Below are positions 22,314-63,865 of a stretch of 64,000 bases of DNA, in pieces. Within the stretch, counting starts at the first letter, position 1. Every line of letters begins with the position of its first letter. This DNA comes from an uncultured delta proteobacterium. Lineage in GTDB: Bacteria; Myxococcota_A; Polyangia; Polyangiales; B10-G4. The translations under genes and the position numbers were made by a program. Below the pieces are notes generated by a model that saw nothing but the letters and a program-made list of their open reading frames with translations, made no database searches and was not told the DNA's origin. The stretch is from the NCBI GenBank assembly GCA_963727445.1, contig CAVSGI010000006.1, forward strand, positions 730,617-794,616, written 5' to 3'.

Positions 22314-23139
22314 ATGAGCATGCGCACGTCGATTGCGCTGTCGTTGGCCGTGGTGATGAGCTTCACCGCGGCGTCGGCGCTTGCACAGACCGGTGACGAA
22401 GACACCGGCACCACAGACGCGACCGAAGGCGCGAGCGACGGAACCGCGGAAGGTGACGGTGGCGACGGTGGAGACGAAGCCACCGCCGACACCGCGGACA
22501 CCGTCCCCGCAGAAGAGGAAGGAAGCAGCCCCGCCGCCGAGACCTCGGCCGCCCCGGATGACAGCGAGATGGACGCCGGCACCTACGCGGTGCGGCTCCG
22601 CGACCTCGAGCAGCGCATCAACGAGCTGAAGGAGCAGATCTTCCGCTCCAAGGCGCGCCTGTCGCTCCTGGCGGAGACGGTGCTTGCAGGGCGTCGTGGC
22701 CGGCGCGCAGGCGATCATCGTCTCACGAGAACCGCATGTCGAGCTCCTACCGGCTCGTGAAGGCCGTGTACGCGCTCGACGGCGCGCCGATCTTCAACAA
22801 GCGCCGACGAGGAGGGCTAGCCTCGGCGAGCGCGGAGCAGTTCGACATCTACAACGGCAGCATCGTTCCCGGCGAGCACACCCTCACCGTCAACCTCGAG
22901 TACCGGGGCCACGGCTACGGCATATTCTAGCTACCTCAAGGGTTATCGCTTCAAAGTGCGTTCGAACTATTCGTTCTCCGCGCCCGAGGGTACGCGCGGT
23001 CACCATTCGTGTGGTGGGTTACGAAAAGGGCGGGCCCACGGCGCCGCTCGAGGAGCGCCCGGCGATCCGCTACGTCGAACGCGTCGGCGACCGCGGCAGC
23101 CGCCCCTCTGCTTCAGACGAGGGTGACGGGGAAGAATGA
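22314..23139 (+). CDS. Secreted protein with acidic linker, coiled coil and beta-sandwich; frameshifted
   Basis: Signal peptide ending ASALA, then RLRDLEQRINELKEQIFRSKARLSLL. Continues in other frames (MSSSYRLVKAVYALDG...GEHTLTVNLEYRGHGYGIFSYLKGY). Confidence 0.75.
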
Positions 23140-25550
23140 CGCGTAGGTGGCCAATTGGGGGCCCGGCGCCCTCTGGCCGCCTGGCCCTGGCGCTGGCGGA
23201 GCGCGGCTTCGGCCCTGCTTCTGCTCTGTGTCGGGTCGCCGGCGTCGGCGCAGGATCTCGCGTCGGTGGGGCGGGAGATCACGGACATCCACGCCAACGC
23301 GCAGCGCATCGCCAGCGAGCGCATCGAGCGCAACCAGACGCGCTTGCGCAGCCCCACCTACGTCGAGGAGCGCCTCACCGACGGCGAGCTCTTCTACCGG
23401 CTGCAGGACTACGTCCGCGCCAGCATCATCTTCACCGACATCGTCGAGAACTACCCGACGCACCGCGCCTATCCCGATGCGCTCTTCCTCCTCGCCGACT
23501 CGCTCTTCCGCGCGGGCGATTACCTCGGCGCGCGCACGCCGCTTCCGCGAGCTGATCCTCGAGCACGCGGGCGAGGCCGCGTTCCGGCCCTACGCTCAGC
23601 GCGCCCTCGGCCGACTGATCGAGATCGCGATCGACACGCGCGACTTCGACGGCGTCGAGGACTACTTCGCGGCGCTGAGCCGCTTGCCGCCGAGCGAGAT
23701 CGAGGCGGCCACCGCCTACTTCCGCGCGAAGTATCTCTACAACCGCGCGGTGCCCGACCGAGGACGTCCTGCGCGAGCGTCAGCGACGACGAGCCCGCCC
23801 CGCAGATCGATCAGGCCGTGCTCGACCAGGCGCGCGTCGGCCTTCGAGGCGCGTCGCCGAGGGCAGCCCCTACTATCCGCAGGCGCGCTACTTCATCGGC
23901 GTCATCTACACCCTCCGCGGGCAGTACCCGCAGGCGATCGAAGCCTTCCGCCGGGTGCTGCGCGTCCCGCGCCACCACGCAGGAGCAGCGCCAGGTCATC
24001 GAGCTGACGCAGCTCGCCCTCGGGCGCCTCTACTACGAGACCGATCAGATCGATCAGGCGATCGAGGCCTACCAGGCGGTGCCGCGCACCAGCCCCGAAC
24101 TTCGACGTGGCGCTCTACGAGATCGCATGGGTGTACATCCGCATGGGCGACTCGACCCGCGCCGAGCGCGCCCTCGAGGTGCTCACCATCGCCGCAGCCC
24201 GACAGCCGCTTCATTCCCGACGGCAACGATGCTGCGCGGCAACCTGCTCCTGCGCAACGGTCGCTTCGACGACGCCGAGCAGGTCTTCCGCCAGGTGCGC
24301 AACCAGTTCGGGCCCGTGCGACGCGAGCTCGAAGAGATGGTCGCCGAGCACGACGACCCCCGCGACGTACTTCCACGCGCTCGTGCGCGACAACATGGAG
24401 AGCTTCAACGCCAACGAGTTCCTGCCGCCGCTGGCGCGCCGTTGGGCGAGCCTCGAGGGCGACATGGACCGGGCACTCGGCGTGCTCAGCGATCTCGCCC
24501 AGGCGCGGCAGCTGGTCGACGAGACCTCGGACCTCGTGCTCCGCCTCAACGCCGCCATCAACGCGCCGAACGCGGTCAACATCTTCGCCGACCTGCGACG
24601 CCATCGGGAGACCACGGTCGGCCTGCGCAACCGCTTGGCGCGGGCGCGCCGAGATCTGATCGCCATCGAAGGCGACTCGGTGGGCGACAGCGGCGAGCTC
24701 GGCTCGATCCGCAGCCAGCGCCGTCGCATCGAGCGGATGCTCGGCGGGATGCCGACGGAAGAGGACGACTTCCAGATCCGGAACGATCGAGCTCCTCGGC
24801 CGCTACCGCGCGCTGTCGCGCGAGCTCAAGAACCTCCAGGTCGAGCTGATGGGCATCGAGGCGCGCATCGTCGCGACCGACCGCTTCCTCGACGACACCG
24901 CGGAGCAGCAGTCCGACCCCAGCCAGGCCGACGCGGTACGCAGCGAGCTCGAGACCCATCGCGAGGCGGTGACGGGCTACCGGGAGCAGATCCACCAGCT
25001 CGAGCGGCTGATCGAGATCGGCCCGCATTCAGGTGGGCGTGGGCGACTCCCGCTACCAGCGCGATGACCGGCTTCGCGCCGAGTACACCCAGCTGGTGGA
25101 GCAGGAGCGCTCGATGCTCGGGGGCCGCGGCTCGAGCGCCCGCGAGATCGACACCCTCTTCGGCCGGATCGCCGAGATCGAGGGGATCCTCGACCGCCAC
25201 GACGCGCTGATCGACCAGGTGGTGGAAGAAAGAACCGCCGATATGCGTCGGGTGATCGAGTGAGGAAAGCGACAACCTCACATCGCTACCGTGAGCAGCT
25301 CGCGTCCCTTCAGCTCGAAGCCGAAGAGGTCGTGGGCGGCGTGACCTACACGAACTTCGACCAGGTGCGGCACCGCTTCTACGACCTGGTGCTGCGCGCG
25401 GACGTGGGCCGTATCGACGTGGCCTGGGCGCGGCGCGAGGAGCACCGCATGCGCGTCGACATGCTCACGCGCGAGCGCTCCCAACAGCTACAGGCCCTCG
25501 ACGACGAGTTCCGAGAGATCATGGACCTGTCCAACGGACGCCACCGGTGA
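23136..25550 (+). CDS. GltC-like periplasmic TPR protein, multiply frameshifted
   Basis: Signal peptide ending PASA. TPR segments DALFLLADSLF and LTQLALGRLYYE...AIEAYQAVPRTSP...ALYEIAWVY. Coiled-coil C-terminus. Confidence 0.7.
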
Positions 25551-25556
25551 CGCGCA

Positions 25557-28500
25557 ATGAGAGCCCTGGCCGTCGATCCTCGCCCTCTTGTCTGGGCGGG
25601 CCCGTCGCACTCGCGCAGCCGCCGCAAGAAGGGCAGCCAGAAGAGGGGCAGCCGCAAGAAGGGCAGCCTCAACAAGGCACCGTTCAGCAGGGCACCACGC
25701 AACAGGGCACCGCCCAGCAGGGCACCGCGCAGCAGGGCACCGTCCAGCAGGGCACCCAGGCCACGCCCTGGGCCGGCACGGCGGCCACGCCCCCGCCTCC
25801 CGCCTTCCTCGACACCACGGATCACCGCATCGAGGACACCCGGCCGCCGCCGACTCCCGAGCAAGTTGCGGCACTTCGGGAGATGAGGCAGAGGTCGAGC
25901 GCTTTGCGACGATTGGCTCGTCCTATCGAGACACGGTGCTCTCCATCGTTCGACGGGAGTATCTGCGCCAGCGCCGCGCGCGCAATCAGGGCTACGCGCG
26001 GCAGATCCGCGAAGAGGAGCGGCTGCAGAACGAGGCGCGCGAGCGCGCCATCCGCCTCTTCGAGCGCTTCATCCGGCGCTACCCGGACGACCCCACCTAC
26101 ACGCCCGACGCGATGTTCCGGCTGGGCGAGCTCTACTTCGAGCGCAGCGCCATCGAGTTCCAGACCGCCTACGAGGATGCGCAGGCGGCGCGGGACCGCG
26201 GTGAGACGCCTCCCGAGGGCGGAGACACCCCCGACTTCACGCCCACCATCGAGCTCTACCGCGCCTGGTCAGCAGCTTCCCGGACTACCGGCGGATCGAC
26301 GGCGTCTACTACCTCATCGGCTACTGCCTCAACGAGATGGGCAGCGTCGACGAGGCGCGCGTCGCCTGGCTGAACCTGGTCTGCGCCAACAAGTACACCT
26401 ACGACCCGACCCAATACGCCGAGGAGCAGCTGGAGCAGGCCGAGCAGGAAGCGACCGAGGGCGAGGAGGGCGAGGAAGAGGAGGAATCCCCGGCGCTCAC
26501 CCTCGACGGTCCGACGACGCCCGAGGAGCCCGCGGGTCCCTACGTCGACCCTTACGACGGCTGCCAGCCCGTGCAGCCCGACGCCGCGTTCATCAGCGAG
26601 ACCTGGTTCCGCATCGGCGAGTACCACTTCGACTCGACTACGGCAGCCGCACTCGCTCGAATGTGCGATCAGCGCCTACGACAAGGTCCTCGCCGACCCC
26701 GAGGACCGCAACTACAACCTCGCGCTCTACAAGGTGGCCTGGGCGTACTACCGCGCGAGCCGTTACCCCGAGGCCATCGAGCACTTCTCGCAGCTCGTGC
26801 AGTGGTCCGACGACGAGCAGCGCCGCACGGGCCGGGCGGGCTCGGAGCTGCGTCCGGAGGCGATCCAGTACCTGGGCATCTCCTTCGCGTACGACGACTG
26901 GAACGAGAACCAGATCCCCGATACCGACGAGGGGGAGCCCTCCGGCATCCAGCGCGTCCAGGACCCGACGCTCCTGCCGCAGGATCGCGACTGGACCGCC
27001 GAGGTCTACTTCGAGCTCGGCAACGTGTACTTCGAGGAGGACAAGTACCCCGACGCGATCGCCGTCTGGAAGCTCGCGCTCGAACGCTGGCCGAACCACC
27101 CGCGGCGCCCCGGAGATCACGCAACATGATCGCCCGCGCCTACACGCGGAACCAGGAGATGGAAGAGGCCATCACCTACCGGGCCGCCCTCGGCGACTTC
27201 GGTCCCAGCGCCTGCCGCGACGATCCCGACTGCTGGTGGAACCAGAACGTGGACCACCCCTCGGAGCAGCGCAACGCCGAGCAGCTCGCGGAGAACGCGC
27301 TCATCAACACGGCGGTGCACTACCACCAGGAAGCGCAGCGGCTCAGGCGCCAGTGCGTCGAGCAGCAGGCCCCCGAGCTCTGCCAGCAGTCGAGCACCGC
27401 ATACCAGCTCGCGGCGCGCGCCTATCGCCGCTACCTCGACCAGCTACCCGAACAGCCCCCAGGCTTACGAGCTCCAGCTACAACCTCGCCGACGCGCTCT
27501 ACTGGTCGGAGGACTACGAGGAGGCGGCCAGCGAGTATGCGCGCGGTCCGCGACTCGAACCTCGACGACACGCACCTGTCCGAGTCGGCGCGCCGCGTGG
27601 TGGAGTCGCTCAAGCGCCTGCGTCGACGCCGCCAGCGAGAGCGCGGCAGATCTCACATCCGCGACCGAGCCGCCCGAGGCCCAGGGCGACGCCGCCCGCG
27701 CGTCATGCCGGTGGCCATGCCCGAGCTCCTGTCAGCGCATCGCGCAGGCCCGCGAGGTCTACCTGGCGCGCGTCGCCCGAGCGCAGGACAGCGAGAACGT
27801 CCGCGCGGCCTACGACTACAACAACGCGCTGCTCCTCTACTATGTACGGCTACTGGCCGCAGGCGCGGGAGCGCTTCGAGCGCATCTACGACGAGCGCTG
27901 CAACGGCCCCGACGCCGACGAGACCGGCCAGCGTCGCGTGGCTGAGCCTGCGCAACATGGCGGTGCAGCTCCAGCAGGACGAGGAGGTCGAGCGCCTCGC
28001 GCCGCGACGTGCCAGCGAGCGCCAGTGCACCTTCACGCCGGACGGTCGAGCGCGGCAGCGCGAGTCGACTGCTCGCGACAGGAGGAGAACGCGGAGCACC
28101 CGCGCTGCCGCGCCATGGGCGACCTACCAACGCCTGCGCTACCAGCGCGCGCTCGACATCTTCCGGCAGGCCGAGGCGGCGTCGGGCGACGAGCAGCGCC
28201 AGCTCTACGAGCAGGCGGCGACCATGCTGGTGCAACGCGGTCAACGACGAGCCGAACCACCCGCAGGCGCCGCTGCGCGCTCGAGAGGCGGCGACTCGCG
28301 CTCGAGCGGACCAGCCGCTTCGAGTCGGCCGGCCGCCTCTACCAGCGCATCATCGACGAGGTCGGCCCGCAGACCAGCGACGACGCCGGAGCGCCAGAAG
28401 CGAGCTCGACGGCATCCTCGCCAACGCGTACTTCCGCCTCGCGTACAACGCGAACCGCTTCTTCGACTACGAGCGCGCGGTCGAGAACTACCGGCACATC

Positions 28501-29587
28501 GCCGACTCGCCCCGCTTCGCGCGTTCGACCGAGCAGGACATCGTCGAGAAGCGCGACGGACGCGCTGATCAACGCCGCGCAGCATCCTCGAGTACCAGCA
28601 GCGACTACCGGCGCGCGGCGGAGTACTACGCGCGCGCCGCGGAGACGCCTGACCGACCCGGCGAGGCGAAGCGGAACGCCCGCTACCGCGTCGCCGAGAT
28701 GGCGTTCAAGCAGCGCAACTGGAGCGGGGCCATCCGCGAGATGCGCGACTTCATCAACCGCTACGAGCGACGACCCGGCGGCGGGCGAGCTCGTGGTGCA
28801 GGCCTACTGGCGCATCGCCCAGGCGACGCGAGAACAGCCGCGGGCGCGGCTACGACGAGCGCCCTGCAGGACGTGGTCGACGCGTTCAGCCGCACGGCCA
28901 GGAGCCCGGCTCGCATGGCCGCCGAGTACGCGGCGCACGCGAAGTTCATCCTGGTCGGACGGCGCCATCGCCGACTTCGAGGACTTCGCCATCCGGCCGG
29001 GGCACCGCCGCGACGATGCAGGCCTACGTCAACACCTCAAACAGCAGATCGAGGAGGGCGCGCGCCGGGCGCAGGGCATCAAGGACGGCTACGAGCCGGT
29101 GCTCGGCCTACCGCCGCCCGACCTGGACCATCGCCGCCTTCATGCGGCAGGGCCGCGCCTACGAGATCCTCGCGCGCGCCGTCCTGAACACGCCGTTCAT
29201 CATGCCGACCGACCTCGCGCGCCAGATGCGCCGCCTGGCGCCGGACGCCCGGGACGACATCCGTCTCGAGATCGAAGGCACGGTGCAGCAGGTGCTCGAC
29301 GAGCAGGTGCGTCCCATCGAGTGCTTCGCGGTCGTGCGCTACGCGCTCGCGGCGCGTGCGGCGCGGCGCCGGCAACATCGACAACGAGTACACCCAGCTA
29401 GGCGATCGACCGGCTCCAGGCCTACGGCGACGAGCGCATCGCGGAGTGCATCGCCGAGGCGCAGCGAAACGACCCGAGCTTCCAGGCGTACAGCAATGGT
29501 GAGTTCGCCCGCGCCCCGCGCGGCCGTAACCTGGACATGGACGCCGACACCTCGCCGCCGTCGCTCTCCAGCCCCCAGAGCCGCTAA
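25557..29587 (+). CDS. GltD/AgmU-like large TPR protein, multiply frameshifted
   Basis: About 4 kb of TPR segments across frames (TPDAMFRLGELYFE, YYLIGYCLNEMG, WFRIGEYHFD, ALYKVAWAYYR, EVYFELGNVYFE). Ends at TAA 29585-29587, overlapping the next ATG. Confidence 0.7.
25622..25756 (+). repeat. Nine 15-bp tandem units encoding PQEGQ/xQQGT pentapeptides
   Basis: CCGCAAGAAGGGCAG-type units grade into nnnCAGCAGGGCACC units. Confidence 0.85.
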
Positions 29588-31161
29588 TGCCAATGCCGCC
29601 CAGTCACACCATCCGCCGGCTTTCCTCCTCAGCCCCTCCCTGCGACGCACCTTCAGTGCGCCTCAGTCGGGGCTTGCGGGGGCGCTCGGCGGCTGGCGCA
29701 ACTGGACGGCATTGGAGCCAGACGCTCTTTCTGCTCCTCGCGCTGTCCGTACTGCCCATCGGCTGCAAGGCCTGCGAAGACGAGGAAGACGGGACGACCG
29801 CCGAGGGCGGCTCCTCCACTTCGGGTGGAGAGAGCACCGGCGGCGGGCTCGAGGCTCCGGACGGCAGCCAGGGTCCCGGCGACGAGGGCTGGGACGGTGA
29901 CGAGGGTGGCGGCGCTGGCGGCGACACCGCTAGCGGCGGGACTCAGAACGGCACCCAGGGCGGCGGCGACGACGCCAGCAGCGCTGGCGGCGAAAGCCCC
30001 TGGGGCTCGCCGGTCACCGAGCAGGGTCGCCCTCTGCCTCCCCGCCGGCCGATGAACAGCGGCGCGCGCAACGCCTATGCCCAGGGGGTCTCCGCGGCAC
30101 AGAGCGGCAACGACGCCGCCGCGGTCCGGGCTTTCGAGCAGGCGCTCTCCGCGGACGGCAACGCCTACAAGGCAGCCTACAACCTCGGGGTGATGGCGGA
30201 CCGCGCCGGCAACGAGCGCCAGGCCCTCGACTACTACCGGCGCGCCCTGCGCATCCTGCCCGACTACGAGCGCGCGGCGCAGGGCATCGTCACCATCCAC
30301 ATCCGCAACAACAACGTCCCCGAGGCGCTCGCTTTCATCGAGCCTCTCGCGCGACAGTGGGTGCGGAACCTCTACCTTCAGGCCCTCTACGCCGAGGTGC
30401 TCGTTCACGCGAATCGCCCGGACGATGCGCTGACCGCGGCCCGCGGCGCGCTTCGGCGCGACGAGCGCTTCGTGCCGGCGATGGTCGCCATCGTCAAAGC
30501 GAGCCTCAAGCAGAACCGCACCGAGCTCGCCGAGGCGATCATCGCGCAGGCGCTCGAGGTCGACGACGACAACGCAGAGCTCCACTACCTCAAGGGCCGG
30601 ATGCTCCTCGAGGAAGAGGGGCGTCAGCGTGATGCGCTGAACGAGCTGAGGCGGGCGGTCACGCTTCGACCCGACTTCGCCGAGGCGCGGATGGCGCTGG
30701 GCATTCAGCTCATGAACGGCGCGAACTACACCGAGGCGCTGCAGCAGTTCCAGGCGGCCGCGGCTCTCGCGCCGACCCTCGTCGCCGTCCACCTCAACCT
30801 GGGCGACGCCTATCGGGCGAACAAGAACTGGCAGCAGGCGAAGGCGAGCTTCGACCGCGCCCTGTCGATGCAGTCGAATCTGCCCGAAGCGCACTTCGAC
30901 CTCGCGCTGATGTACATGAGCGCCGGTGAGGATTTCCCGGGACAGAGCAACCTCGAGTCGCTCCAGAAGGCGGTCGAGGAGTTCAACACGTACCGGAGCA
31001 TGATGGGCCCGAGGCTGCCACGCGACGATCCGTCCGAGGCCTACCTCGAGGACCTGAATCGACAGGTGGAGCGTGAGCAGCGGCGCATCGAGCGCGAAGC
31101 TGCGCGCGCACAGCGCGATGCCGCGCGTACGGGCGCCGAGGGCGGCGACGGAGGTCAGTGA
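29587..31161 (+). CDS. GltE/AglT-like TPR lipoprotein; true start may be slightly downstream
   Basis: Hydrophobic LFLLLALSVLPIGC, Gly/Asp/Glu linker, many TPRs (AAYNLGVM, VHLNLGDAYR, EAHFDLALMY). Position between the GltD-like and GltF-like genes. Confidence 0.8.
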   Translation: MPMPPSHTIRRLSSSAPPCDAPSVRLSRGLRGRSAAGATGRHWSQTLFLLLALSVLPIGCKACEDEEDGTTAEGGSSTSGGESTGGGLEAPDGSQGPGDEGWDGDEGGGAGGDTASGGTQNGTQGGGDDASSAGGESPWGSPVTEQGRPLPPRRPMNSGARNAYAQGVSAAQSGNDAAAVRAFEQALSADGNAYKAAYNLGVMADRAGNERQALDYYRRALRILPDYERAAQGIVTIHIRNNNVPEALAFIEPLARQWVRNLYLQALYAEVLVHANRPDDALTAARGALRRDERFVPAMVAIVKASLKQNRTELAEAIIAQALEVDDDNAELHYLKGRMLLEEEGRQRDALNELRRAVTLRPDFAEARMALGIQLMNGANYTEALQQFQAAAALAPTLVAVHLNLGDAYRANKNWQQAKASFDRALSMQSNLPEAHFDLALMYMSAGEDFPGQSNLESLQKAVEEFNTYRSMMGPRLPRDDPSEAYLEDLNRQVEREQRRIEREAARAQRDAARTGAEGGDGGQ

Positions 31162-31412
31162 TGCGAAGTTTCTTCACGATGGTTCTTGTCGCGGTGGGGC
31201 TCTGCCTCGGCGCCAGCTCTGTTGCCTCGGCCGAAGCGCCGGCCGCGCCCCGGCACATCACCGAGCTGCCGATGACGGTGATCCACGGCGACCTCCAGCG
31301 ACCGATGGCCAGCTACATCCTCACCCGCAGCGGCGACCGCTACGAGGTGCGCGAGCTTCGGACGAGCTTCGTGCGCGAGATCGTGCGAAGCGTCCAGCGG
31401 GAGGAGCTGTGA
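31161..31412 (+). CDS. GltF/CglF-like small secreted protein (copy 1)
   Basis: Signal peptide, VIHGDLQRP...LRTSFVREIVRSV, resembling the GltF IEGxxxKP...F...SV pattern. Confidence 0.75.
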   Translation: MRSFFTMVLVAVGLCLGASSVASAEAPAAPRHITELPMTVIHGDLQRPMASYILTRSGDRYEVRELRTSFVREIVRSVQREEL

Positions 31413-31663
31413 TGAAGACGCGCTTCGTCGGGGCGGTGCTTCTCTTCGCTCTCCTCCTCGGTGCGATCTCGATCGCGAGCGCGCAGCAGAACCAGCGGCG
31501 CCCCCGGGTGATCCAGCTCGACGAGATCCGCATCGAGGGCCGCGTGCAGAAGCCCAACGCCTTCTACATCCTCAACCGCTCGAATCTCGGCTACGAGGTC
31601 ATGGACCTTCGCACCAGCTTCGTGCGTGAGGTGATTCGGTCGGTCCAGCACGACCCCTTCTGA
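31412..31663 (+). CDS. GltF/CglF-like small secreted protein (copy 2)
   Basis: TGATG overlap, signal peptide, LDEIRIEGRVQKP...LRTSFVREVIRSV. Clear paralog of copy 1. Confidence 0.78.
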   Translation: MKTRFVGAVLLFALLLGAISIASAQQNQRRPRVIQLDEIRIEGRVQKPNAFYILNRSNLGYEVMDLRTSFVREVIRSVQHDPF

Positions 31664-33957: not shown

Positions 33958-34108
33958 CTACAGTCGGGCCGCTCCTGAACCACGGCGCACCTCTGGGCAA
34001 CCACTGGGGCTGATGCGCACGCGTCATCGGGTTGATTCTCAAGTCGACCCCTTGTCAGAGTGCCCGTCCCCTCATCGATAAGGTCATGATTTCCCGAGGA
34101 ATCCCGTG

Positions 34109-37115: not shown

Positions 37116-37117
37116 CC

Positions 37118-37657: not shown

Positions 37658-37668
37658 GTGCGAGATCG

Positions 37669-38904: not shown

Positions 38905-38912
38905 GAGAGTCG

Positions 38913-39818: not shown

Positions 39819-39826
39819 ATAGAGAA

Positions 39827-43870: not shown

Positions 43871-43935
43871 GCCAAGAAGAGCTGTTGCGCCTTGGGGGTG
43901 GCAGTCCCGGCCCCCGTTGAACCACCCGGGAAAGA

Positions 43936-50076: not shown

Positions 50077-50088
50077 CGTCATCCTTTC

Positions 50089-52001: not shown

Positions 52002-52047
52002 GCGCGCGCTCCCGCTTGATGGAACCGCCCCGCGAGCCTTCGGGATG

Positions 52048-53157: not shown

Positions 53158-54515
53158 GATGCAAGACTCCCGGTAGCACGCGATGGGCGAAGGTGGCCGG
53201 CCCCCGACGCTGACCCAGCCGAGGGGGCTCGGGCAGCTCGTAGTCGTGCCACCGAAGAGATGACGCCGAGGAAAAGGAAGTAGTGAGGACTCTTGAAGAG
53301 CGTGCCGCCGACTCCAGCGACCATGAAGAGCACCATTATTGGAATCGCCGCCGCCATGACGGGTGATACGAAAGGCTCAAGCGCCAAGCGTTTTCGGACT
53401 CGAGAGAAGAGCTTGAGGAAGAGCCATAGGTACACGGCGAGTCCAAGCAGGCCCGTCGAGACCAGCATGCTGAGGTACTCATTGTGCGCACCAACGTCGT
53501 GATCCTTCATTCTCGGGTCGTCCAAGTGCCCGAGGCGCCGAATGTATGTGCGGTGATAGTAACGGTACTGGGCAGTGCCTACGCCGAGTAGGTAGTGATC
53601 CACGGCGACGTTCCAGACCGCTCTCCAGATGTCCGATCGACCGGAACCCGTCGTAACGGAGCCGCTGCGTTCGTACCGCTTCAACACCCCGGCACTATCC
53701 TCCACCCCCTGCGTGGTCATGACCAACGCGGAAGCGGCGATCATCAGGGCTCCGACGGTCAGTGTGACGCGCTTCCTCATCTGGGATGTGCCGAGACGTC
53801 GGCCTGCGATTGTCGGCATCATCAAGAGGATGAATGTGCCGAGTGTGAGCGCTAGCGCGCCACTTCGCGATCCCGTCAAGACCACGACCACTAGGAGCAA
53901 CAACATCGTGGCGGCCCGGCGAATCTGGACGATTGACCGTCGTTTCTTGCCGAACAGTACCGCTGCGAGAAGCAAGAGGAAGCTCGCGCCTGCTGCTGCC
54001 GAAAGTGAATTGGGGTTCTTGAAGAAGGCGGATAGCCGCGTCGCTTCGCCCGCTCCAGGGGCGAAGGGGTGGAGGAGCACGCCGCATACGATGCCAGCGA
54101 TGTAGGCTGTCAGCACAGGTTGAGTAGTTCTGCGTGGATCGAACGTGCTCTTGAATGCCAGGTAGACGAAGAACGAAAAGAGCGTGAGCAGCACGTCATT
54201 GAACGCCCACGAGAGGTAGCCCGCGTCGTCAACGACCTTCCAGAACGCGGCCATGGCCAGGCCGAGGCCAACGAGGAAGAGGATGCCCTTGTCGAAGAAG
54301 TCCAGGCGCGTGCGACGCCGAGGCATCAGGAACGGCCAGGCGACGATGATAACCAACCCCACGAGACGGTAGGGCTTGAACACGGTTCTGTTCTCGAAAT
54401 AGCGAACCAGGATGTGTTCGAACGGAAGCAGGAAGAAGTAGACCATCAGGAGCCACTGGATGATGGTGGCTCCGCCAGCCTTGCTTCTTCGCCTCGGCCG
54501 AACGACGGCGCTCAT
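53154..54515 (-). CDS. O-antigen ligase/Wzy-family polymerase
   Basis: Multi-pass membrane protein with NPN, LTGSRSG, GR..IW, LLGVG and AHNEYL motifs. Confidence 0.85.
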   Translation of the reverse strand: MSAVVRPRRRSKAGGATIIQWLLMVYFFLLPFEHILVRYFENRTVFKPYRLVGLVIIVAWPFLMPRRRTRLDFFDKGILFLVGLGLAMAAFWKVVDDAGYLSWAFNDVLLTLFSFFVYLAFKSTFDPRRTTQPVLTAYIAGIVCGVLLHPFAPGAGEATRLSAFFKNPNSLSAAAGASFLLLLAAVLFGKKRRSIVQIRRAATMLLLLVVVVLTGSRSGALALTLGTFILLMMPTIAGRRLGTSQMRKRVTLTVGALMIAASALVMTTQGVEDSAGVLKRYERSGSVTTGSGRSDIWRAVWNVAVDHYLLGVGTAQYRYYHRTYIRRLGHLDDPRMKDHDVGAHNEYLSMLVSTGLLGLAVYLWLFLKLFSRVRKRLALEPFVSPVMAAAIPIMVLFMVAGVGGTLFKSPHYFLFLGVISSVARLRAARAPSAGSASGAGHLRPSRATGSLAS

Positions 54516-55459
54516 GGCCAGACCTCCCGCAGCACTTCGGCAAGCTTCTCGGCGAGGAAGAGCTCGGTCTTCTGGAAGGACTCCTCCGTGTTGCCGCCTA
54601 TGTGCGGGACGATGATGAGATTTCCACCGGCACGGGCAAGTTGGATCAGAGGTCGGTCGGCGGTTACTCGATCTTCGCCTTCGAGAACGTCGAGCGCCGC
54701 ACCCGCCAGCGCGTTGGCTCTAAGTGCTTCGTTCAACGCAGTTTCGTCGATGACCCCGCCGCGGGATGTGTTGACCAGGACGGCATTGGGTCGCATTGCG
54801 GAGAGAAGCTCACTCCCGATCAAGTGGTGTGTCGAGTCGTCGTAGCGGACGTGCAGAGTGACCAGGTCGGAACGGGAGAAGAGCTCTTCGAGCGAGCGAA
54901 CTCTTTCGACGTGAGCTGGCGTTTCGCCACTCGGGTCGTATCCGAGCACATTCATCCCGAGCGTGTGGAGATACTCCGAGACGATCGTTCCGAGTCGCCC
55001 CAGGCCTACTACACCAGCCGTCTTCTCGTAGAGCTCTCGCCCCCGAAAGGCGTCTCGGTTCCACTCTCCCCGTTTCACCGATGCGGCCGCATCCGGAATG
55101 TTCCTGAGGAGAGCGAGCGCGAGTCCAATGGTGAGCTCGGCTGTCGCGCGCACCCGCTTGAGAAACTCCCGCTCGCCACGAAGGCTCACGATGCGTACAC
55201 CCGCTCGCGCGCAGGCCGACTCGTCGATGTGGTCGAGGCCCGTGACGGGACACGCGATGATACGGCAGCGACAACCCTCCAGCTCTGCAGCCCCGATCCG
55301 ATGACCCAGGCGAAACCAAAACACATCACACTCTCGGAGGGCCGAGGCGAGCTCGTCGGAAGGGCACGTGCTCGACACGACGTCACCCAACTCTCGCAGG
55401 CGCGACAACGCGGCGGCGCTGAAGTCGTCCGGTTCAGCTAGCCGAATCAGCGGACGCAT
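54512..55459 (-). CDS. D-isomer-specific 2-hydroxyacid dehydrogenase (SerA-like)
   Basis: TGLDHID, ATAELT, GVVGLGRLG, LVNTSRG, AALDV, PHIGG. Confidence 0.9.
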   Translation of the reverse strand: MRPLIRLAEPDDFSAAALSRLRELGDVVSSTCPSDELASALRECDVFWFRLGHRIGAAELEGCRCRIIACPVTGLDHIDESACARAGVRIVSLRGEREFLKRVRATAELTIGLALALLRNIPDAAASVKRGEWNRDAFRGRELYEKTAGVVGLGRLGTIVSEYLHTLGMNVLGYDPSGETPAHVERVRSLEELFSRSDLVTLHVRYDDSTHHLIGSELLSAMRPNAVLVNTSRGGVIDETALNEALRANALAGAALDVLEGEDRVTADRPLIQLARAGGNLIIVPHIGGNTEESFQKTELFLAEKLAEVLREVWP

Positions 55460-56624
55460 CGGGGCGCTCGGACAGGAAGGAAAGCGTCTTCTGAATGTAG
55501 GGGTCGATGTGTGTGAGTTTCTCCGCGAGATCGTTCGAGACATTGCCGTGCCCATAAAGGGTGCTCGGCTCGTAGCGGCCGTGGGCCAGCTGGCGTTCGA
55601 TGGCCGACGCGATGTCCTTCTGCCGAGGCGCTACTTGCGTGACGTGCACGTCGCGCTCTCTTCCGTTCTGCCTGTCCCCGACCAGGACGACGGGAGTGCC
55701 GAAGAAGCCGGCGTCGCGAACGAAGCTACTCGAGTTGCCCACCGCCACAGCCGCCGTGCCGAGCACGCGCAGGTACTGCTCGGGGACCAGGTTGGTGATC
55801 GCGCGGAGCCAGCCAGCGTCGACCTTGTCGCGAAAGACACGTATCGCTTTGCTAATGTGGTCTGAGCCGGCGTCGATGTTGGGCCAGAGGAGGACGGTCT
55901 GGGTGCCGGCGTTCGCGAGGGCAGCCAGCAACTCGGTCATTTGCTCGCCCTCTGCCCCGTAGGTCGTCGTCGTGGGGTGAAAGACGACGAGGAGGAAGGG
56001 CTTGTCGACGTCGATGACCGCACCCGACCCTCTTCCGTTGATCACCGAAGGATCGAGTGAGAGGTCGAGGCCGAGAGCGATGTCGCTGGAGGGACAGCCG
56101 ATACCCAGCACCGTCTCTTCGTGTTCCCCCATGCGAAGGATGAAGTCTGCCGCGCGACGAGTCGCGGGGTAATGGTACTGAGAGAACTTGGTGATGGCGT
56201 GGCGAGTGCTTTCGTCGATCGAGCCACTGACCTCGCCTCCCTGCATGTGGACGACAGGGATGTTCATGAATGCCGCAGCGACAGAAGCGGCGAGCGCTTC
56301 GTATCGGTCGCCGATGAGAAGGACGAAGTGCGGAGCGAGGCGCTTCAGCTCGCCGGCGAATTCGACGACTCCGAACCCCACGGACTTCGCCATCGTCGAA
56401 GGCGTCGACCCTTCGAGCTCCATGAAGATCTCGCTGTCGATGCGAAAACCGTCGCGTCGGACCACTTCTACCGGTTGGCCGAAGCGCTCGAGGACCATGG
56501 TTCCAGCTGCGATGACTTGGAGCTCGAGCTCCGGTTTGTCCTCAATCGCCTGCATGACGGGCTTGAGACGCCCGTAGTTTGCGCGATCCACGAGGACGAC
56601 ACACACGCGTCGAGGTTCAGACAA
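55434..56624 (-). CDS. neuC: NDP-GlcNAc-type 2-epimerase, hydrolysing (NeuC family)
   Basis: RANYG, GDRYE, HMQGGEVSGSIDE..RHAITK, FHP.T, PNIDAG, GNSSS, GDRQ.GRE. Confidence 0.9.
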   Translation of the reverse strand: MSEPRRVCVVLVDRANYGRLKPVMQAIEDKPELELQVIAAGTMVLERFGQPVEVVRRDGFRIDSEIFMELEGSTPSTMAKSVGFGVVEFAGELKRLAPHFVLLIGDRYEALAASVAAAFMNIPVVHMQGGEVSGSIDESTRHAITKFSQYHYPATRRAADFILRMGEHEETVLGIGCPSSDIALGLDLSLDPSVINGRGSGAVIDVDKPFLLVVFHPTTTTYGAEGEQMTELLAALANAGTQTVLLWPNIDAGSDHISKAIRVFRDKVDAGWLRAITNLVPEQYLRVLGTAAVAVGNSSSFVRDAGFFGTPVVLVGDRQNGRERDVHVTQVAPRQKDIASAIERQLAHGRYEPSTLYGHGNVSNDLAEKLTHIDPYIQKTLSFLSERPDASADSAS

Positions 56625-57671
56625 GATGCTCCTCCATCAGGAGTGTGTCGACGTCGACGTCCACTCGGAGCTTTCTTCCGAGGACCTCGCTCACTCGACT
56701 GGCGTTGATACCGGTGCCGGGCTTCTTGAACGCTACGTCCTCCGACGTGAGAACGGACCCCGCAGGCAGGTTCCGAGCTGCCACCACCGACTTCGAAAAG
56801 AGCTGTCGCAGGTCCGCCGTTTCGTCCGCGGCTCGAATCCTTGTTCACCGGGTGTTGGATGATGCGTTCGACATGGCGCACTCCGTCAACCAACGTTCGG
56901 AGTTGGTTCGGCGTGAGAGAGGACGAGGTGTCAGGGCCGAAGCAGAGCTCGGAGAAGACGATGTGAACCTCGAGCATATTGGCTTCGAGAGCTGCTGCCG
57001 CAATGCCGGTGGCCGAAACGGCCGAATGGTCCGACAAGCCGACGGGGCAACCGTATCGCGACCGGAGCTCGCTCATGACGTTGAGCCCGACTCGTTCTGG
57101 GGGGCACGGATAGGACGTGGTCGTCTGGAAAATCCCCAGCCCACCACCGCCTGTTCGGACGAAGATTGACAGCAGCATCCAATTCGGCCCAGGACGACAT
57201 CCCACTCGAGAGCAGAATCGGCTTTTTCGTGGAGACCATCTGAGCGAGAAGGGCGTGATTGGAAACCTCTCCGGAGGCGATCTTCCAAGCGGGCATTCCG
57301 AGCCGAGTCAGCAAATCCACGGCCTTGGCGGAGAAGGCCGAAGAGAGAAAAACAATCCCCGCTTCTGCGGCATGCTCCGCGAGGCCGGTCCACTGCGCCT
57401 CATCGAACTCCATCCTCCGCCAGTATTCGTAGCGTGTTCCATCCTGGCGGCTGAACTGGATGCGCCAGGGCTCGGCCGGCGTTGATTCTTCCGCCGCAAA
57501 ATGCGTCTGGAACTTCACGGCATCCGCGCCGCACTGAGCTGCCATGTCGATGTAGGCGTGAGCGGCTCCGAGCGAACCGTCGTGCGCTTGAGCCACCTCG
57601 GCGATGATGAAGCAGGGCTCACCAGGTCCGACTCGTCGATCGCCAATGCGGAAATGCGCAGACTTTTCCAT
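56617..57671 (-). CDS. neuB: N-acetylneuraminate/nonulosonate synthase, frameshifted
   Basis: FIIAEVAQAHDG, ADAVKFQT, KIASGE, LSSGM, GLSDHS, C-terminal SAF domain (KKPGTGI). Confidence 0.9.
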
Positions 57672-57837
57672 CCGTCCCTTTGGCGAAGCCTCGGCTTCAC
57701 TAGTTGCGAACGACGCCTCATCCCTTCAGAGGCACGTCAGTCGAGGTTGAAATCGTTGAAGTTTCCCGCAGTGGCCAGCGGAAGCGGTGTTCAAGCATGC
57801 TTGGAGGGCCAGGGCAACCTCTCGACCCGACCCAACG

Positions 57838-59052
57838 TCAGCTTCGGTCTAGCAAGCGCTGGAGATCATTGCTGAAAATCTGCCGAGCGTAGTGGCTTTC
57901 GACGTAATCATGTCCCGACTTCCCCATTTTCGTGGCGTCCGCGTGGGCCACTGCGGCACCGAGGGCTTCGGCGAGGGCTTCGGCGCTTCCGGGTCGAACC
58001 ACCCAGCCGCATCCCGCAGCCCGAACCACATCTCCACACTCGCCCTCGACGTTGGTGAGGACGGGAAGCGATGCCGCCATGTAGTCGAAGAGCTTGTTGG
58101 GGCTCACCCCGCTTCGAAAGAGGGGAGTGTCCTTGAGCGTGAGCACGCCAACGTCGCATCGGGAGAACAGACGAGGGATCTCACTTTTCGGCACGGGATC
58201 CATGAAAGTGATGTTGCGTAGGCCCCTGACGCGCGCGCGCTCGCGGAGCCCTGCCTTCTCCACGCCATCACCGACGAGTAGGACGTGTACTCGGGTCTCG
58301 CCTCGGCGCTGGAGGATGTCGGCAGCATCGACGAGAGCCGAGAGATCATTCGCCGGCCCATGAGCACCCGCATAGATCGCGACTAGCTGCGCCTCGGGAA
58401 AGCCGGGCGGCGGAGGACCATGCTCCGGAGAGCTGAAGCTCGAAAGTTCGACGCCGTTTGGAATGTAATGAATCCGGTTGCGGTCGACGCCACACTCCAC
58501 GATCGCATCAGCGTTCTTCTGAGCAAGCACGATGATTTGATCTGCTCGGTGGTACAGATGATCGGCCAGAACCCGAAGGGCGCGCGTCGTCGTGCTCGAC
58601 CGACCGGTGACCGCCACCATGCTCTCGGGCCAAAGATCACGCACCTCGAGGATGAACTTCACCCTGCGGATCGCTGCAGCCTTCTGCGTGGCGGCCGCGG
58701 CAAAGAGCGTCGGGGAGGAGCCGATGAAGGTCGTGCGCGAGGAGATGGGTACATGGAGCAGGTGATGAAAGGTGGCCTGCGCGAAACGGAGCATTCCTGC
58801 GGCTCGTCTCCAGTCGTTGCTCTCGTACGTCAGGGTGTGCAGCCAGTGAAAGGCACGCCCGCGATTCGCTCACGAATGACGCGGAGATCGCGGGGCCGCG
58901 ACGGCGCTCGTATTGCCTCGTGCCGAGATTGATGTCGGAGGCGACGATCGTGACCTCCGTGCCCGCGTCGTTGAGCAACTTGGCGAAGTCGAAGTGCCGG
59001 GTGCCGCCGGGAAGATCGGGGGTACCGCGAACTGGTTGACCCAGTAATGCAT
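57838..59052 (-). CDS. Glycosyltransferase family 4 (WbuB-like), frameshifted near the 5' end
   Basis: SSPTLF, EVRDLWPE, IPNGV, YAG.HG.AN.L, SPNKLFDYMAA.LPV. Confidence 0.88.
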
Positions 59053-61071
59053 CACTGCTCCTCCATCAGGAGCGCCACTGCTCGGTCAGTCTGACCGGAC
59101 CCATAGGCCTCGAGAGCCCGATGCGGGATGGATGGCTTCGATCCGTCAGCGTGGAGTGCGAAGGCGAAGACCGAAGCGGGCCGAAGCGAGGAAAGCTCGG
59201 ATGGATGTGCACGGGATCCTCTTTCCGTATGTGGGCGAATACCATCCCAGAGTGTCGTCTCGTGACCCCGTCCGACACTCAATCCGCACATCGGGGTCGC
59301 CTTCGACGCGAATGGCGACTCCTTCCCGCGTCCATTGATCGGCGTCTCGTTCCCAGTCGTCCCCGAGCAAGTTCCAGTGAGCTCGCATCGTCAGCTTTCT
59401 CTGTGCAACGAGTCTGTCGAAGACGATAATGCTCCGCTCACGATGCAGCACGAGGCGTTTGTGTAACACATGCTTCCGATCGTCTGCGTGAGTGTGGGCG
59501 ATGATGAGATGGGCGCGTTCGGTGCGCTCGAGTCTGGTAATGCGGGCGTCATTCCAACGAGACCACATAAAGCGCCCAACGCGCCGCATTTGGTCTCGAT
59601 CTTCGACACTGCAGGTATTGTGAACTCTCGTTGACGCGAGCCCGTTGTCCCAGGGCGGGCTAGCGGTGTATGCGAATGTGCCGGGGTCCAAGAGGATGTT
59701 CTCCCCATCTACGAACAGGTCGATGTGCAGACTGTCCGCGTGCGCTGGTCGATGTGTCCGCTTGCCAGCCGGCATGAAGATGGACGAGCTTGGGAACCGG
59801 GAGTCGACGTACCCGGAGCCGGTAGCAGCCAGTGCTCGACTCTCCCGTCCACGCGTCTCCTGAGTGTCGGAGTCGATTCCAAACCACGACACTTCCTCGT
59901 CGTAGGGCCCTGACACGAAAGCTCTCCGATTCCTGGTCATCAGCGAGATGTGCTGGAGGAGGGGGCGCATGTCCGGAACTCGCAGGTGCTCAGCGGAATG
60001 ATCAGCGCCCCGTCGTTGGACCCGTAGTTGGGAAGACGGCCGGTCTCCAAATCGATGAATCGGTGCATGAAGTCGAAGGTGCGCTCGAGCGCGGACATCA
60101 CCCCCGGAGGGCAGGGGACTCGGTAGTGGCGGCTCACCCACGCGACGAAGAGCAGCGAATGTGCGAAGAGCCGCTGGTAGTTGAACGAGTCCTGAATGTA
60201 TGCCCCGTCCGCTGCGAGTTGGTCGGCGAGAACCTTCTCGAGCAGACGCTCCGCGCGTCGACGGTTCTGTGCTGCCCTAGGCCAGCTCGGCGCGATCACC
60301 GAGCACGTCCAGAGACCGATCAACTCGCTGGTGGTGTGGTTGTTCCGGAATCGATAGCGCGTGGCCGAGTGTCTGGGCGACCCGACGGTACGAGTCGAAG
60401 AGAAGTTGATCCACTTTGCGCTCGACGCTCTCGATCGGTGGCTTCGTGTCTTTCCAAGAGCGCTCGAGCAAAGGTCAACGCCATCACCCGGAGAGAGGTT
60501 TCCTGCCCGCAGTACCAGTTGGGTCCGAGGAAGGGAGGGTTCGCCTCCATCCAGGCTTCGACGGCGGACCAGAGCGCGTGGATGAACCGGTCTTCGCCGG
60601 TGGCCGCCCAGGCGCGACAGAGGTGCCACACGAAGCCGAAACGACTCGGCTCCCAGATGGTACTTGATGTCACCCGCCATGAGGTCGGAGGTCGAAATGT
60701 GGCTCCAGTGCTTCTTCTTCCACTGGACTCCGGTCAGAGGGTGAACGAGAGAGGTGGGAGGCCATCCGGATGGGTGCCATGTTGCAGAGAAGTAGGGGTA
60801 CTCCCCGCCGAGCATGCGCTCGGCATCAGTGCGTATCTTCTCGCGCGTATCCGGATGGCGATCGTAGAGGTCGATCACCGCGTCGGGCAGATCGAACGCG
60901 GGAAACTCGGCGGGCGACGGAGCTGGCCGGCTGTTGAGCCGCTGGTACGCGCCGCTCCGAAGCCGCAACTCGTGCAGCGTTGGCCATGCGACGCCGCTGA
61001 CTCCGTAGGTTCTCACGACGTCCCGGGGTCGCAGCTCCCCGAGCCGACGAGTCTGGGCGAAGTCGAGGCAT
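59052..61071 (-). CDS. Heparinase II/III-family protein, frameshifted
   Basis: DIKY.WEPSRF, NPP..GPNW..GQE...R, NNH..SE, PNYGSNDG, HADSLH, DPGT.AY, HNT. Confidence 0.8.
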
Positions 61072-61073
61072 GG

Positions 61074-61691
61074 CTATCGAACGACGCGCGCAGGAACTCC
61101 GACTGCCGTGACGTGGGCGGGGAGGGTGCCGACGACGGTGGCCCCGGCGCCCACCCTCGTCCACTCCCCCACGGATGCCTGTGGGATGCTGCTCGAGCCC
61201 GAGCCCAGGAGGACGCCTTCACCGATCCTCGTGCCCCCAGAACAGGGCGGCGCCCGGCCCGACGTGGGCAAAGTCGCCGATCTCCGGAGTCGTGGTCGAC
61301 TGAGGCGCGCGTGTTGATGATGACGTGGGGACCCGACGGCGGTCCGCGGCTGAAGGACCGCTCCCGCGAAAACGACCGTTCCTGGTCCGAGTGAGACAGT
61401 CGGATGAACGTAGGCGGTCGGATGGACGATGGTCGCGGGTGTTGCTTCGAGGCGTCGAGCGACCTGCATCCTCAGCGTGTTGTCACCGATGGCGACCACC
61501 CAACTCCCGTCTGCGATGTCGGCCCTCTCGATGGGGCCCAGCACCGGAACACCCAACACACGCGTGCCCTCCAGGGAGGCGTCGTCGTCGAAGGCCCCCG
61601 CGACCTCGAAGCCAGCGTCCTGGCACGTGGCGATCACCACGGCGGCATGCCCGCCAGCTCCAATCACGTAGACACGATGCACCGGCGCCAT
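61074..61691 (-). CDS. NeuD/PglD-family sugar acetyltransferase (internal compensating frameshifts)
   Basis: IGAGGHA, VAIGDN..R, IVHPTA, hexapeptide repeats, VGVPAR. Confidence 0.88.
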   Translation of the reverse strand: MAPVHRVYVIGAGGHAAVVIATCQDAGFEVAGAFDDDASLEGTRVLGVPVLGPIERADIADGSWVVAIGDNTLRMQVARRLEATPATIVHPTAYVHPTVSLGPGTVVFAGAVLQPRTAVGSPRHHQHARLSRPRLRRSATLPTSGRAPPCSGGTRIGEGVLLGSGSSSIPQASVGEWTRVGAGATVVGTLPAHVTAVGVPARVVR

Positions 61692-61892
61692 TGTGCCACC
61701 AGCTCGGTTCCCAGCAATTGCCCAGAATCAGCGTTTGGCGCCCCATTGCGCGTGCGTTGTCTCACGAGCGAGCGGCGATGAACGCGTCGGCGCCCATTAG
61801 CAACGAACCGCCGTGAGCTTATCGTTTTGCGCAGCCTCTCCTCATGACCTACCGTCCTCGCCGCAAAGGCGAGAAAAGCGTCGAGGATTTCG

Positions 61893-62929
61893 GTGAAACG
61901 CGCATTGATCACGGGGATTACGGGACAGGACGGGTCGTATTTGGCCGAGCTTCTGCTCTCGAAGGGATACGAAGTTCATGGCGTGATCCGCCGTGCGTCG
62001 ACCTTCAACACCGACCGCATCGATCACCTCTATCAGGATCCGCACGAAAGCGGCGCTCATCTGTACCTCCACCACGGCGACATGACGGATGTACCGGGCT
62101 GAGGCGCATCATCGAGGAGGTGGAGCCGGTCGAGGTCTACAATCTCGCGGCGCAGAGCCACGTTCGCGTCTCCTTCGACCAGCCCGAATACACGGCCGAC
62201 GTCGACGCGATGGGAGCGCTCCGATTGCTGGAGGCCGTTCGAGACGCCGCGGGAGGCGGGGTCCGAATCTATCAGGCGAGCACATCGGAGATGTTCGGCG
62301 CTTCACCACCGCCGCAAAACGAAGAGACGCCCTTCTACCCGCGTAGCCCATACGCCGTCAGCAAGGTTGCCGCGTATTGGTATGGGGTGAACTACCGCGA
62401 AGCCTACGACCTCTTCGTCGTCAATGGGATCCTCTTCAATCATGAGTCGCCGCGCCGCGGCGAGACTTTCGTCACTCGGAAGATTACGCGCGCGGTGGGG
62501 CGCATCAAACACGGGCTACAGGAGAAGCTATACCTGGGTAACCTGGATGCGCGACGCGACTGGGGATTTGCGGGGGACTACGTCGAGGCCATGTGGCTCT
62601 CCCTGCAGGCCGAGGAGCCCGACGACTACGTGGTGGCGACCGGCGAGTCGCATAGCGTCGCAGAGTTCGTGGAGCGGGCGTTCGCGCGAGCAGACCTCGA
62701 CTACCGACAGTACATCGAAACGGATCCGCGCTACTTCCGTCCAACCGAAGTGGACCACCTCGAGGGTGATGCGACCAAGGCCAGGACGAATCTGGGGTGG
62801 AAGCCGACGGTGGACCTGACCCAGTTGGTGGGCATGATGGTGGACGCGGATCTCCAACTCGCCGACCGAGAGCGCATCCTGCGAGACGCCGGCCACACAG
62901 GCGCCCTCCCGCGCGGTCGCGCGATGTGA
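61893..62929 (+). CDS. gmd: GDP-mannose 4,6-dehydratase, one frameshift near 62090
   Basis: [52 protein letters not shown]. Confidence 0.95.
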
Positions 62930-62932
62930 TTC

Positions 62933-63865
62933 ATGGAAGCCGTAGACAAGATCTTCGTCGCAGGACATCGCGGGCTGGTCGGAAGCGCCCTCGTTCGGGC
63001 TCTCAAAGCCGACGGGTTCGACAATCTAGTGGTGAGGAGCCGCGAGGAGCTGAACCTCTGTGACCGGGCGCAGGTCGACGAGTTCTTCGCAGAGGAGCGC
63101 CCCGCATACGTTTTCCTAGCGGCAGCCAAGGTCGGGGGGATCGCTGCCAACGACACGTATCCCGCCGACTTCATCCGGGACAACCTCCAGATCGAGGTCA
63201 ACGTCATCGATGCAGCATATCGAGCCGGGGTCACCAAGCTCGCGTTTCTGGGTTCGTCCTGCATCTATCCGCGACAGTGCCCTCAGCCGATCAAGGAGGA
63301 GTACCTCCTCACGGGCAGCCTCGAACCAACCAACGAGTGGTACGCCGTAGCCAAGATCGCGGGCATCAAGCTCTGCCAGGCGTATCGTCGCCAGTACGGC
63401 TTCCGAGCGATATCCGTGATGCCGACCAACCTCTACGGCCCCGGGGACAACTTCAATCTCGAGAGCTCACACGTGCTTCCCGCCCTCCTTCGTAAGTTCC
63501 ACGAGGCGCGTGTAGCTGAAGCGACGTCGGTCGAAATCTGGGGGACGGGTACCCCGCGGCGCGAGTTTTTGCACGTGGACGACCTCGCACGCGCCACCAT
63601 CTTTCTGATGCAGACGTACGACGAGCCCGGCATCATCAACGTGGGTAGCGGCGAAGAAGTGTCCATCCGAGAACTGGCTGAGCTCGTCCGCGAAACCGTG
63701 GGATTCCGTGGAGAGCTCGCCTTCGACACGAGTCGTCCCGATGGGACTCCTCGAAAGTTGCTCGACGTCTCGAGGCTTGTAGCGCTGGGCTGGAAACCCG
63801 CGATCCCGCTCGCGGCCGGGCTCCGCAGCACCTACGACTGGTACCTCAGCCAAGCGAAGGATTGA
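62933..63865 (+). CDS. fcl: GDP-L-fucose synthase
   Basis: [57 protein letters not shown]. Confidence 0.95.

Follow-up and report, generated by a model that had tools for sequence, protein, structure and literature searches.

The window analysed here is a stretch of 64,000 nucleotides from an uncultured delta proteobacterium (assembly GCA_963727445.1, 9.5 Mb, 86 % complete) and forms the end of contig C6. It carries eight consecutive genes on the plus strand (22314-33957) that resemble the Glt gliding machinery of Myxococcus xanthus, namely g1, C-, D- and E-like genes, two GltF-like genes, a TolQ-like gene and a GltG-like gene. Genes for an outer-membrane beta-barrel and an outer-membrane polysaccharide export (OPX) lipoprotein lie further downstream. 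Judged by sequence, the cassette is an orthologue of the M. xanthus cluster G4 (MXAN_1919-1924), and the barrel and OPX proteins are orthologues of WzpB and WzaB of the biosurfactant polysaccharide (BPS) translocon. The locus is built from known parts, namely a G4 orthologue and a translocon of the BPS type, together with a glycan cassette that has been swapped. The linkage between cluster and translocon is real and conserved, as across the phylum the genes largely keep their order and are present or absent together. Our leading, still tentative explanation is that the G4-type Glt core acts as a proton-motor-coupled accessory of the WzpB/WzaB pore, which would open, position or clear the barrel without being strictly needed for export.

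For the window alone, the news is modest, since it adds one more G4-barrel copy with a swapped glycan cassette. Cluster G4 and the orphan motor M2 have been without a known function since 2011, and pore opening in Class-3 OPX/barrel systems is unsettled. The conserved pairing ties this question to G4 and M2 and names an unstudied candidate subunit, the MXAN_1917-like protein. If the explanation is true, each of the three Glt-type machines studied so far would have a link to secreted sugar polymers.

Orthology of the cassette, the barrel and the OPX protein

Quick maximum-likelihood trees were built from 55 GltG and 32 GltE rows. Here and in the TolQ tree, rows were named Glt, Nfs, G5, M1 or M2 according to gene content, chromosome position and profile score, not locus tag. 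In the GltG and GltE trees, the window proteins group with the G4 copies of Myxococcus and Corallococcus in a barrel-linked clade (SH-aLRT 99) and are separated from Glt and Nfs, in the GltG tree also from G5. A profile of the D protein, derived from barrel-linked Polyangiales copies, scores 528-542 for G4 compared to 34-194 for Glt, Nfs and G5. The g1 profile has no match in Glt, Nfs, G5 or FHA-GltG clusters; the g1 model combines a coiled coil with a beta-sandwich, for which the fold search returned only weak transthyretin-like or fimbrial matches.

Myxococcaceae loci follow the order OPX-barrel-small gene-(cNMP gene)-G-F-E-D-C, and one complete Myxococcus genome shows g1 and then mglA/mglB beyond C. 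The MXAN numbers used here are a gene count from wzaB (1915) to mglA (1925) in this genome, which is not that of DK1622. Published anchors are wzaB as MXAN_1915 and wzpB as MXAN_1916 (PMC9603273) and mglA/B as MXAN_1925/1926 (10.64898/2026.08.28.747804). The count puts D at MXAN_1922, the gltD homologue of cluster G4, the function of which was described as unknown (Luciano 2011, PMC3169522). As none of the 151 genomes in the phylum sample exceeded the gliding-GltG cut-off, the Myxococcaceae were reached by a wzaB motif scan, which yielded 94 stretches, many from named Myxococcaceae. The original prediction had placed an uncharacterised Glt paralogue beside the BPS OPX and porin genes of M. xanthus, and this cluster proved to be G4 (PMC3169522 and the gene count). 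Its proposal of a third kind of Glt core is partly supported: GltG and GltE do not group with canonical Glt, and the cassette stands apart from Nfs, but the cluster itself had already been described as G4.

The window shares with M. xanthus G4 the tree clade, a GltG that is 32 % identical over 454 aa, and the order g1-C-D-E-F-G-small-barrel-OPX, although in the window 9 kb of glycan genes interrupt it ahead of the small gene. It differs in its two GltF copies, its degenerate TolQ-like gene, the lack of a cNMP-binding gene and an extracytoplasmic function (ECF) sigma pair upstream instead of mglAB. This divergently transcribed pair (19938-21975, minus strand) consists of an ECF sigma factor gene and a zinc-finger/tetratricopeptide repeat (TPR) anti-sigma gene and is a candidate regulator of G4. 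Of 20 Polyangiales regions, about 10 have a similar gene upstream; in Myxococcus, mglAB takes this place.

The co-oriented run of Glt-like genes was correctly recognised in the original prediction, except that the gene at 22314 is g1 and not GltC. The frameshifted pieces of g1 and of the C- and D-like genes tile intact homologues. These frameshifts are most likely assembly errors because rpoC in the same assembly is equally broken, being split into five pieces; for the same reason, a reading of the C- and D-like genes as pseudogenes was rejected.

The C, D, E, F and G homologues are in common with the Agl-Glt gliding machine (PMC3169522, PMC11761067), and this homology could mean that the cassette is the organism's own gliding Glt (or Nfs) machine with the glycan locus as a chance neighbour. 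This is very improbable and largely refuted by the trees, which exclude the window. Every NCBIfam gliding match in the cassette falls under its equivalog cut-off (gliding_GltG 3.8e-48, GltE 9e-30, CglF weak, and GltC 1e-5 on a window fragment and 8e-32 on an intact relative). The window GltG reaches 164 bits against a cut-off of 650 for NF033760 and covers profile positions 185-647 only; it has no N-terminal FHA domain and aligns well with the gliding GltG in the C-terminal domain only. GltA/B/H/K/I/J and CglB are not among the cassette genes. As the original prediction had stated, no GltA/B/H-like genes were found in the window (NfsA/B/H-like queries), nor was GltI with a GltI-like query, while GltK and GltJ were not used as queries. 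The sole NfsB-like match in the genome lies on contig C27, in a cluster with an FHA-bearing GltG and a GltI-like TPR gene that falls on the Glt/Nfs side of the trees.

The Agl-Nfs spore-coat machine is likewise a Glt-type core beside a Wzx/Wzy polymer with its motor encoded elsewhere (Wartel 2013, PMC3858216). In contrast to G4, Nfs includes A/B/H barrels of its own, and its NfsG bears an FHA domain; g1 and the small protein are additional components of G4. The window contains no nfsA-H operon with its own barrels, and its proteins do not group with NfsG/NfsE. Elsewhere in the same genome, there is a third C-D-E-G cluster (C9:572048-580284), as well as stand-alone GltG-like genes at C5:109857-111398 and C8:161772-163158, the latter of which groups with the G4-type GltG.

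The barrel and short OPX pair named in the original prediction was recovered as a PF10082 barrel adjoined by a two-domain OPX lipoprotein with an aromatic end, the arrangement of a Class-3 OPX/Wzp barrel translocon of the BPS type. The OPX protein has M. xanthus WzaB as its best PDB match (9N9A, E 7e-39) and shows 40 % identity to the Myxococcus gene. A barrel profile from which Myxococcaceae were left out identified one gene in each of four Myxococcaceae genomes, at the wzpB position in all three in which the locus was placed. The same profile matched nothing convincingly among PDB sequences, and an 18-stranded barrel fold is predicted from the WzpB orthology. The orthologous OPX and barrel are shared with the BPS translocon WzaB/WzpB/WzcB (Islam 2020, PMC7310880; Saidi 2022, PMC9603273; PMC12819527), whereas the Wzc of the window genome lies on another contig and the predicted sugars are nonulosonate, fucose and methylated sugars. 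Because the sugar genes differ, the window polymer is probably not M. xanthus BPS.

The small gene at 43286 encodes a protein with a confidently predicted three-helix bundle, for which no PDB fold match was found at E<=0.001; its Atlas neighbours are unnamed Myxococcota clusters. A similar gene accompanies the barrel and is single-copy in Myxococcus, directly before wzpB. Following the helices, at residues ~150-162, there is a conserved ET-x-V-x-T-x-V-D stretch. We take this stretch to resemble a TonB box and, presumably, to be a candidate strand for the C-terminal domain of GltG. A paralogue of the protein is encoded at C15:262185-262646.

Conservation of the linkage between G4 and the barrel

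The linkage was followed in 40 relatives at the order level, for which the distance from gltG to the barrel was scored, in 151 phylum genomes with the g1 profile as G4 marker, and in fetched regions from 20 Polyangiales and from 20 others picked by barrel match, mostly distant lineages. A barrel match was found in 34 of the 40 order relatives. In 29 of them, the barrel shares the strand of gltG and is 0.8-3.7 kb downstream; in the other five, it is on another contig. G is followed by the barrel in 19/20 Polyangiales regions and in 17/20 of those picked by barrel match. Across the phylum, g1 and the barrel were both found in 115 genomes and neither in 33, with g1 alone in two and the barrel alone in one; related genomes are non-independent samples, and such counts overstate the statistical weight. 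The two are co-oriented within 25 kb in 83 of the 115 (83/89 with both on the same contig). A Wzc-type match at E<=1e-50 is present in 113/115 both-positive genomes and in 6/33 double-negatives. Four genomes inside otherwise positive families, G017 and G103 (f17) and G078 and G097 (f42), are without G4, barrel and Wzc matches. The conserved linkage to the barrel across Myxococcota, on which the original prediction depended, is confirmed, with the G4-small-barrel order kept across some 30 families. A strongly reduced genome of 1.8 Mb on a single contig (G123, locus L059), in which no gliding-GltG match was found at E<=1e-40, still encodes Wzc, OPX, the barrel and G4 as well as two AglR-like genes.

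The points at which the loci break differ. The OPX gene adjoins Wzc elsewhere in three genomes (G008, G028, G038) and lies on another contig in two (G020, G016), while the small gene and barrel remain with G4, so that the break falls between barrel and OPX in the five genomes checked. In M. xanthus it falls between OPX and Wzc (PMC7310880), and in the window, G005 and G014 between G and the small gene. Glycan or Wzc genes follow the OPX/barrel genes in 15/30 loci (67/95 candidate open reading frames scanned). Since the break points vary and only half of these loci continue in this way, G4-small-barrel is the stable unit, and the synthesis genes are variable. The conserved partner is therefore the barrel module and not a whole glycan pathway of the kind to which the original prediction had linked the cassette. 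According to the literature, wzaB is contiguous with synthesis genes in Sandaracinus amylolyticus (PMC7484181, PMC7310880), and MXAN_1915 has been called not part of a polysaccharide cluster (PMC7484181). The flanks vary freely, with an ECF sigma gene in the window, mglAB in Myxococcus and assorted genes downstream.

In the window, the trio of small gene, barrel and OPX has a GC content at third codon positions of 0.64-0.71 compared to 0.90 for gltG, and in this it resembles the low values of the glycan block. In relatives, the difference between barrel and GltG in this measure is +0.005 (standard deviation 0.057, n=34). This suggests that the trio was laterally swapped in with the glycan cassette, possibly by a capsule-switch-like exchange with its junction just after gltG.

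Motor supply and possible action on the pore

The TolQ-like gene of the window has both conserved Thr positions replaced and no TolR-like neighbour; an AglRQS-type motor, consisting of a TolQ with Thr and two TolR-like genes, is thus not encoded inside the cluster. Most aligned Polyangiales copies are likewise without both Thr. The window gene has no Pfam match, and a close relative matches PF01618 weakly. In distant loci, TolQ lies between F and G in 12/17 cases, and all nine aligned copies keep the Thr residues. Two TolR-like genes follow the in-cluster TolQ in 4/4 distant loci read. For 10/10 in-cluster TolQs from distant loci, the score against Myxococcus M2 exceeds that against M1. The window genome carries M1-like and M2-like TolQ-TolR-TolR sets back to back at C9:715129-719110, as do G008, G009, G028 and G123; in the TolQ tree, C9:717292 groups with M2 (94) and C9:716316 with M1 (91). 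Because the in-cluster TolQ lacks the conserved threonines, the cassette is likely powered by an M2-like motor encoded at another place in the genome. In a two-hybrid assay, the AglR homologue of M2, MXAN_3003, bound neither GltG nor NfsG (PMC3858216), and M2 is therefore without a known partner; we propose M2 powering G4 as a natural pairing. G017 and G103 have one AglR-like gene instead of a pair, as do G142 and G161, which have G4.

In a modelled gliding complex, GltG wraps GltD and is connected through GltF to GltC, which in turn docks on the GltA/B/H barrels (PMC11761067). By analogy, an AglRQS-type motor would drive the GltG-like protein; many distant lineages encode this motor inside the cluster, whereas the window genome, with its degenerate in-cluster TolQ, would use the M2-like set on contig C9. 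G would wrap D, F would bridge G to C, and C, g1 or the 43286 protein may contact the periplasmic face of a WzpB-type barrel that would occupy the place of the gliding GltA/B/H. Force on the barrel could then help a BPS-type polymer to be released or to spread, the Wzx/Wzy/Wzc genes for its synthesis being variable in content and place. Two published observations speak in favour: the surface loops of Wzp barrels are closed at rest in simulations (10.1101/2023.12.21.572922), and Glt and Nfs both work on sugar polymers (PMC3858216). A bolder version, in which G4, M2, the 43286 protein and WzpB form a proton-driven, TonB-like motor-gated polysaccharide exporter with the porin replacing GltA/B/H, possibly the phylum-wide ancestral job of Agl-Glt and the source of gliding and spore-coat wrapping, is less likely than not.

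Several points weigh against an action on the pore. The apparent exchange of the barrel trio speaks against tight co-adaptation with G4. Six f35 genomes have G4 and barrel rearranged, and a further 26/115 carry them on different contigs, where linkage cannot be judged. At least 6.6 kb of genes without a barrel match follow gltG in G005, and in G089 and G118, both fragmented drafts, the G4 marker was found but neither the barrel nor Wzc was matched. The TolQ tree does not group the in-cluster motors with M2, and the exopolysaccharide and spore-coat barrels are not known to have a G4-like neighbour. WzaB binds WzpB and WzcB directly, and a motor-free secretion model has been published (PMC12819527). 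A polar MXAN_1922 mutant and an MXAN_3004 deletion showed no appreciable motility defect on hard and soft agar (PMC3169522), whereas wzpB deletion causes a severe swarm-spreading defect, and wzpB/wzaB mutants are unlike these mutants (PMC12819527).

The linkage could instead reflect co-regulation or old synteny, with G4 having a separate envelope job, such as cargo, contact or adhesion, and no action on the pore. This is unlikely but deserves serious weight, as the normal motility of the MXAN_1922 mutant, the trio exchange and the G089 and G118 genomes are in line with it, and a promoter-like site could give the barrel trio its own transcription in the window. It does not readily account for flanks that change freely while G4-small-barrel persists in some 30 families, for the joint absence in G017, G103, G078 and G097, or for the barrel remaining with G4 where the OPX gene leaves.

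Alternatively, G4 and its motor may be indispensable for energising export and draw the polymer through the barrel, in the way TonB powers import. The near-perfect co-occurrence of G4, barrel and Wzc and the complete TolQ-TolR-TolR-GltG sets within the operon of distant lineages would fit, but the MXAN_1922 and MXAN_3004 mutants moved normally and wzpB mutants do not, which makes this improbable. The energising role put forward in the original prediction is affected accordingly, as the published data lean against an essential one. It is also quite unlikely that G4 is a motor-driven device for barrel assembly or maintenance (folding, insertion, turnover or tethering) and does not handle polymer. 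The barrel is the most persistent neighbour, above OPX or Wzc, TPR scaffolds and a TonB-like domain suit envelope biogenesis, and the stability of gliding GltC depends on GltA/B (PMC11761067). However, WzpB refolded in vitro bound WzaB without G4 (PMC12819527), and loss of WzpB assembly should make the MXAN_1922 mutant look BPS-minus. The accessory role at the pore is the preferred explanation. A search by MXAN_1915-1924, MXAN_3003 and topic, covering few subscription journals and no supplements, found no publication linking G4 to the BPS pore. The term Glt is absent from the main text of two Wzp papers (PMC9603273, PMC12819527) and appears in passages of PMC9601211 only as a control strain.

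Glycan genes, assembly and feature coordinates

The first sugar gene starts 149 bp past the gltG-like stop (33957 to 34106), close to the 150 bp given in the original prediction. Its description of the pore genes as joined directly to the cassette was not confirmed, as 10 kb separate gltG from barrel and OPX, with an intervening 9 kb block in which GC content drops from 69 % to about 61 %. This insertion (34106-43145) is missing at the same place in most relatives. Nor do the glycan genes form one co-oriented run, given that the minus strand carries Wzx and the block 47931-61727. The polysaccharide locus is also not complete: Wzx, a Wzy-like gene and OPX are in the window, but neither Wzc nor an initiating sugar-phosphate transferase was found there. 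Contig C16 holds the single Wzc-type match of the genome as well as one of its three initiating transferases. The window end coincides with the end of C6, and the glycan locus may run on past it; a search for an overlap joining C6 to C16 found none. A colinear second copy of 47945-61685 (14 kb) lies at C16:5182-20099, with ~70 % nucleotide identity over an aligned 1 kb, and could have arisen by an ancient duplication, by two separate captures or through a mixed bin. The coordinates of all features are listed below.

Features of the G4-like cassette, the pore genes and the glycan genes in the window
Feature	Position	Strand	Remarks
g1, G4-specific secreted protein (MXAN_1924-like)	22314..23139	+	signal peptide, coiled coil, beta-sandwich; frameshifted
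GltC-like TPR/coiled-coil protein (MXAN_1923-like)	23136..25550	+	~8 frameshifted pieces
GltD-like TPR protein (MXAN_1922-like)	25557..29587	+	~8 frameshifted pieces
GltE-like TPR protein	29587..31161	+	intact, lipobox-like Cys; true start probably ~40 codons further in
GltF-like small secreted protein, copy one	31161..31412	+	
GltF-like small secreted protein, copy two	31412..31663	+	better conserved
Degenerate TolQ/ExbB-like membrane protein	31835..32422	+	
GltG-like protein, G4 type	32515..33957	+	one cytoplasmic domain, transmembrane helix, TonB-like C-terminal domain; without N-terminal FHA
Low-GC glycan insertion	34106..43145	+ except Wzx	nucleotidyltransferase, dehydratase, C-methyltransferase, epimerases, GT2, CmcI
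Wzx flippase	40533-42146	-	
Sigma-70-like promoter match, 11/12	43228..43255	+	ahead of small gene, barrel, OPX; consensus match only
Secreted three-helix protein (MXAN_1917-like)	43286..43870	+	two conserved Cys, Pro-rich tail
WzpB-type outer-membrane beta-barrel (MXAN_1916 orthologue)	43936..45249	+	PF10082
Class-3 (two-domain) OPX lipoprotein, WzaB orthologue	45204..45815	+	C-terminus ERVF against ESFF
CMP-sugar synthetase (NeuA-like) and frameshifted glycosyltransferase-like gene	45815..47949	+	
Convergent glycan block	47931..61727	-	acetyltransferase, heparinase II/III-like, GT4, NeuB, NeuC-like, 2-hydroxyacid dehydrogenase, UDP-GlcNAc 2-epimerase, AsnB, oxidoreductase
Wzy/O-antigen-ligase-like gene	53154-54515	-	within convergent block
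gmd (frameshifted) and fcl	61844..63865	+	GDP-fucose synthesis

The terminator scan was uninformative, with 13 sites compared to 11.9 expected. Two regions of the assembly, C8:1-37000 and C25:1-14000, have 42-44 % GC within a 69 % GC genome and could be foreign islands or binning contamination. An intergenic repeat of ~85 bp at 31667-31752, resembling repetitive extragenic palindromic elements, has 36 BLAST matches in the genome, one of them near the end of the D-like gene.

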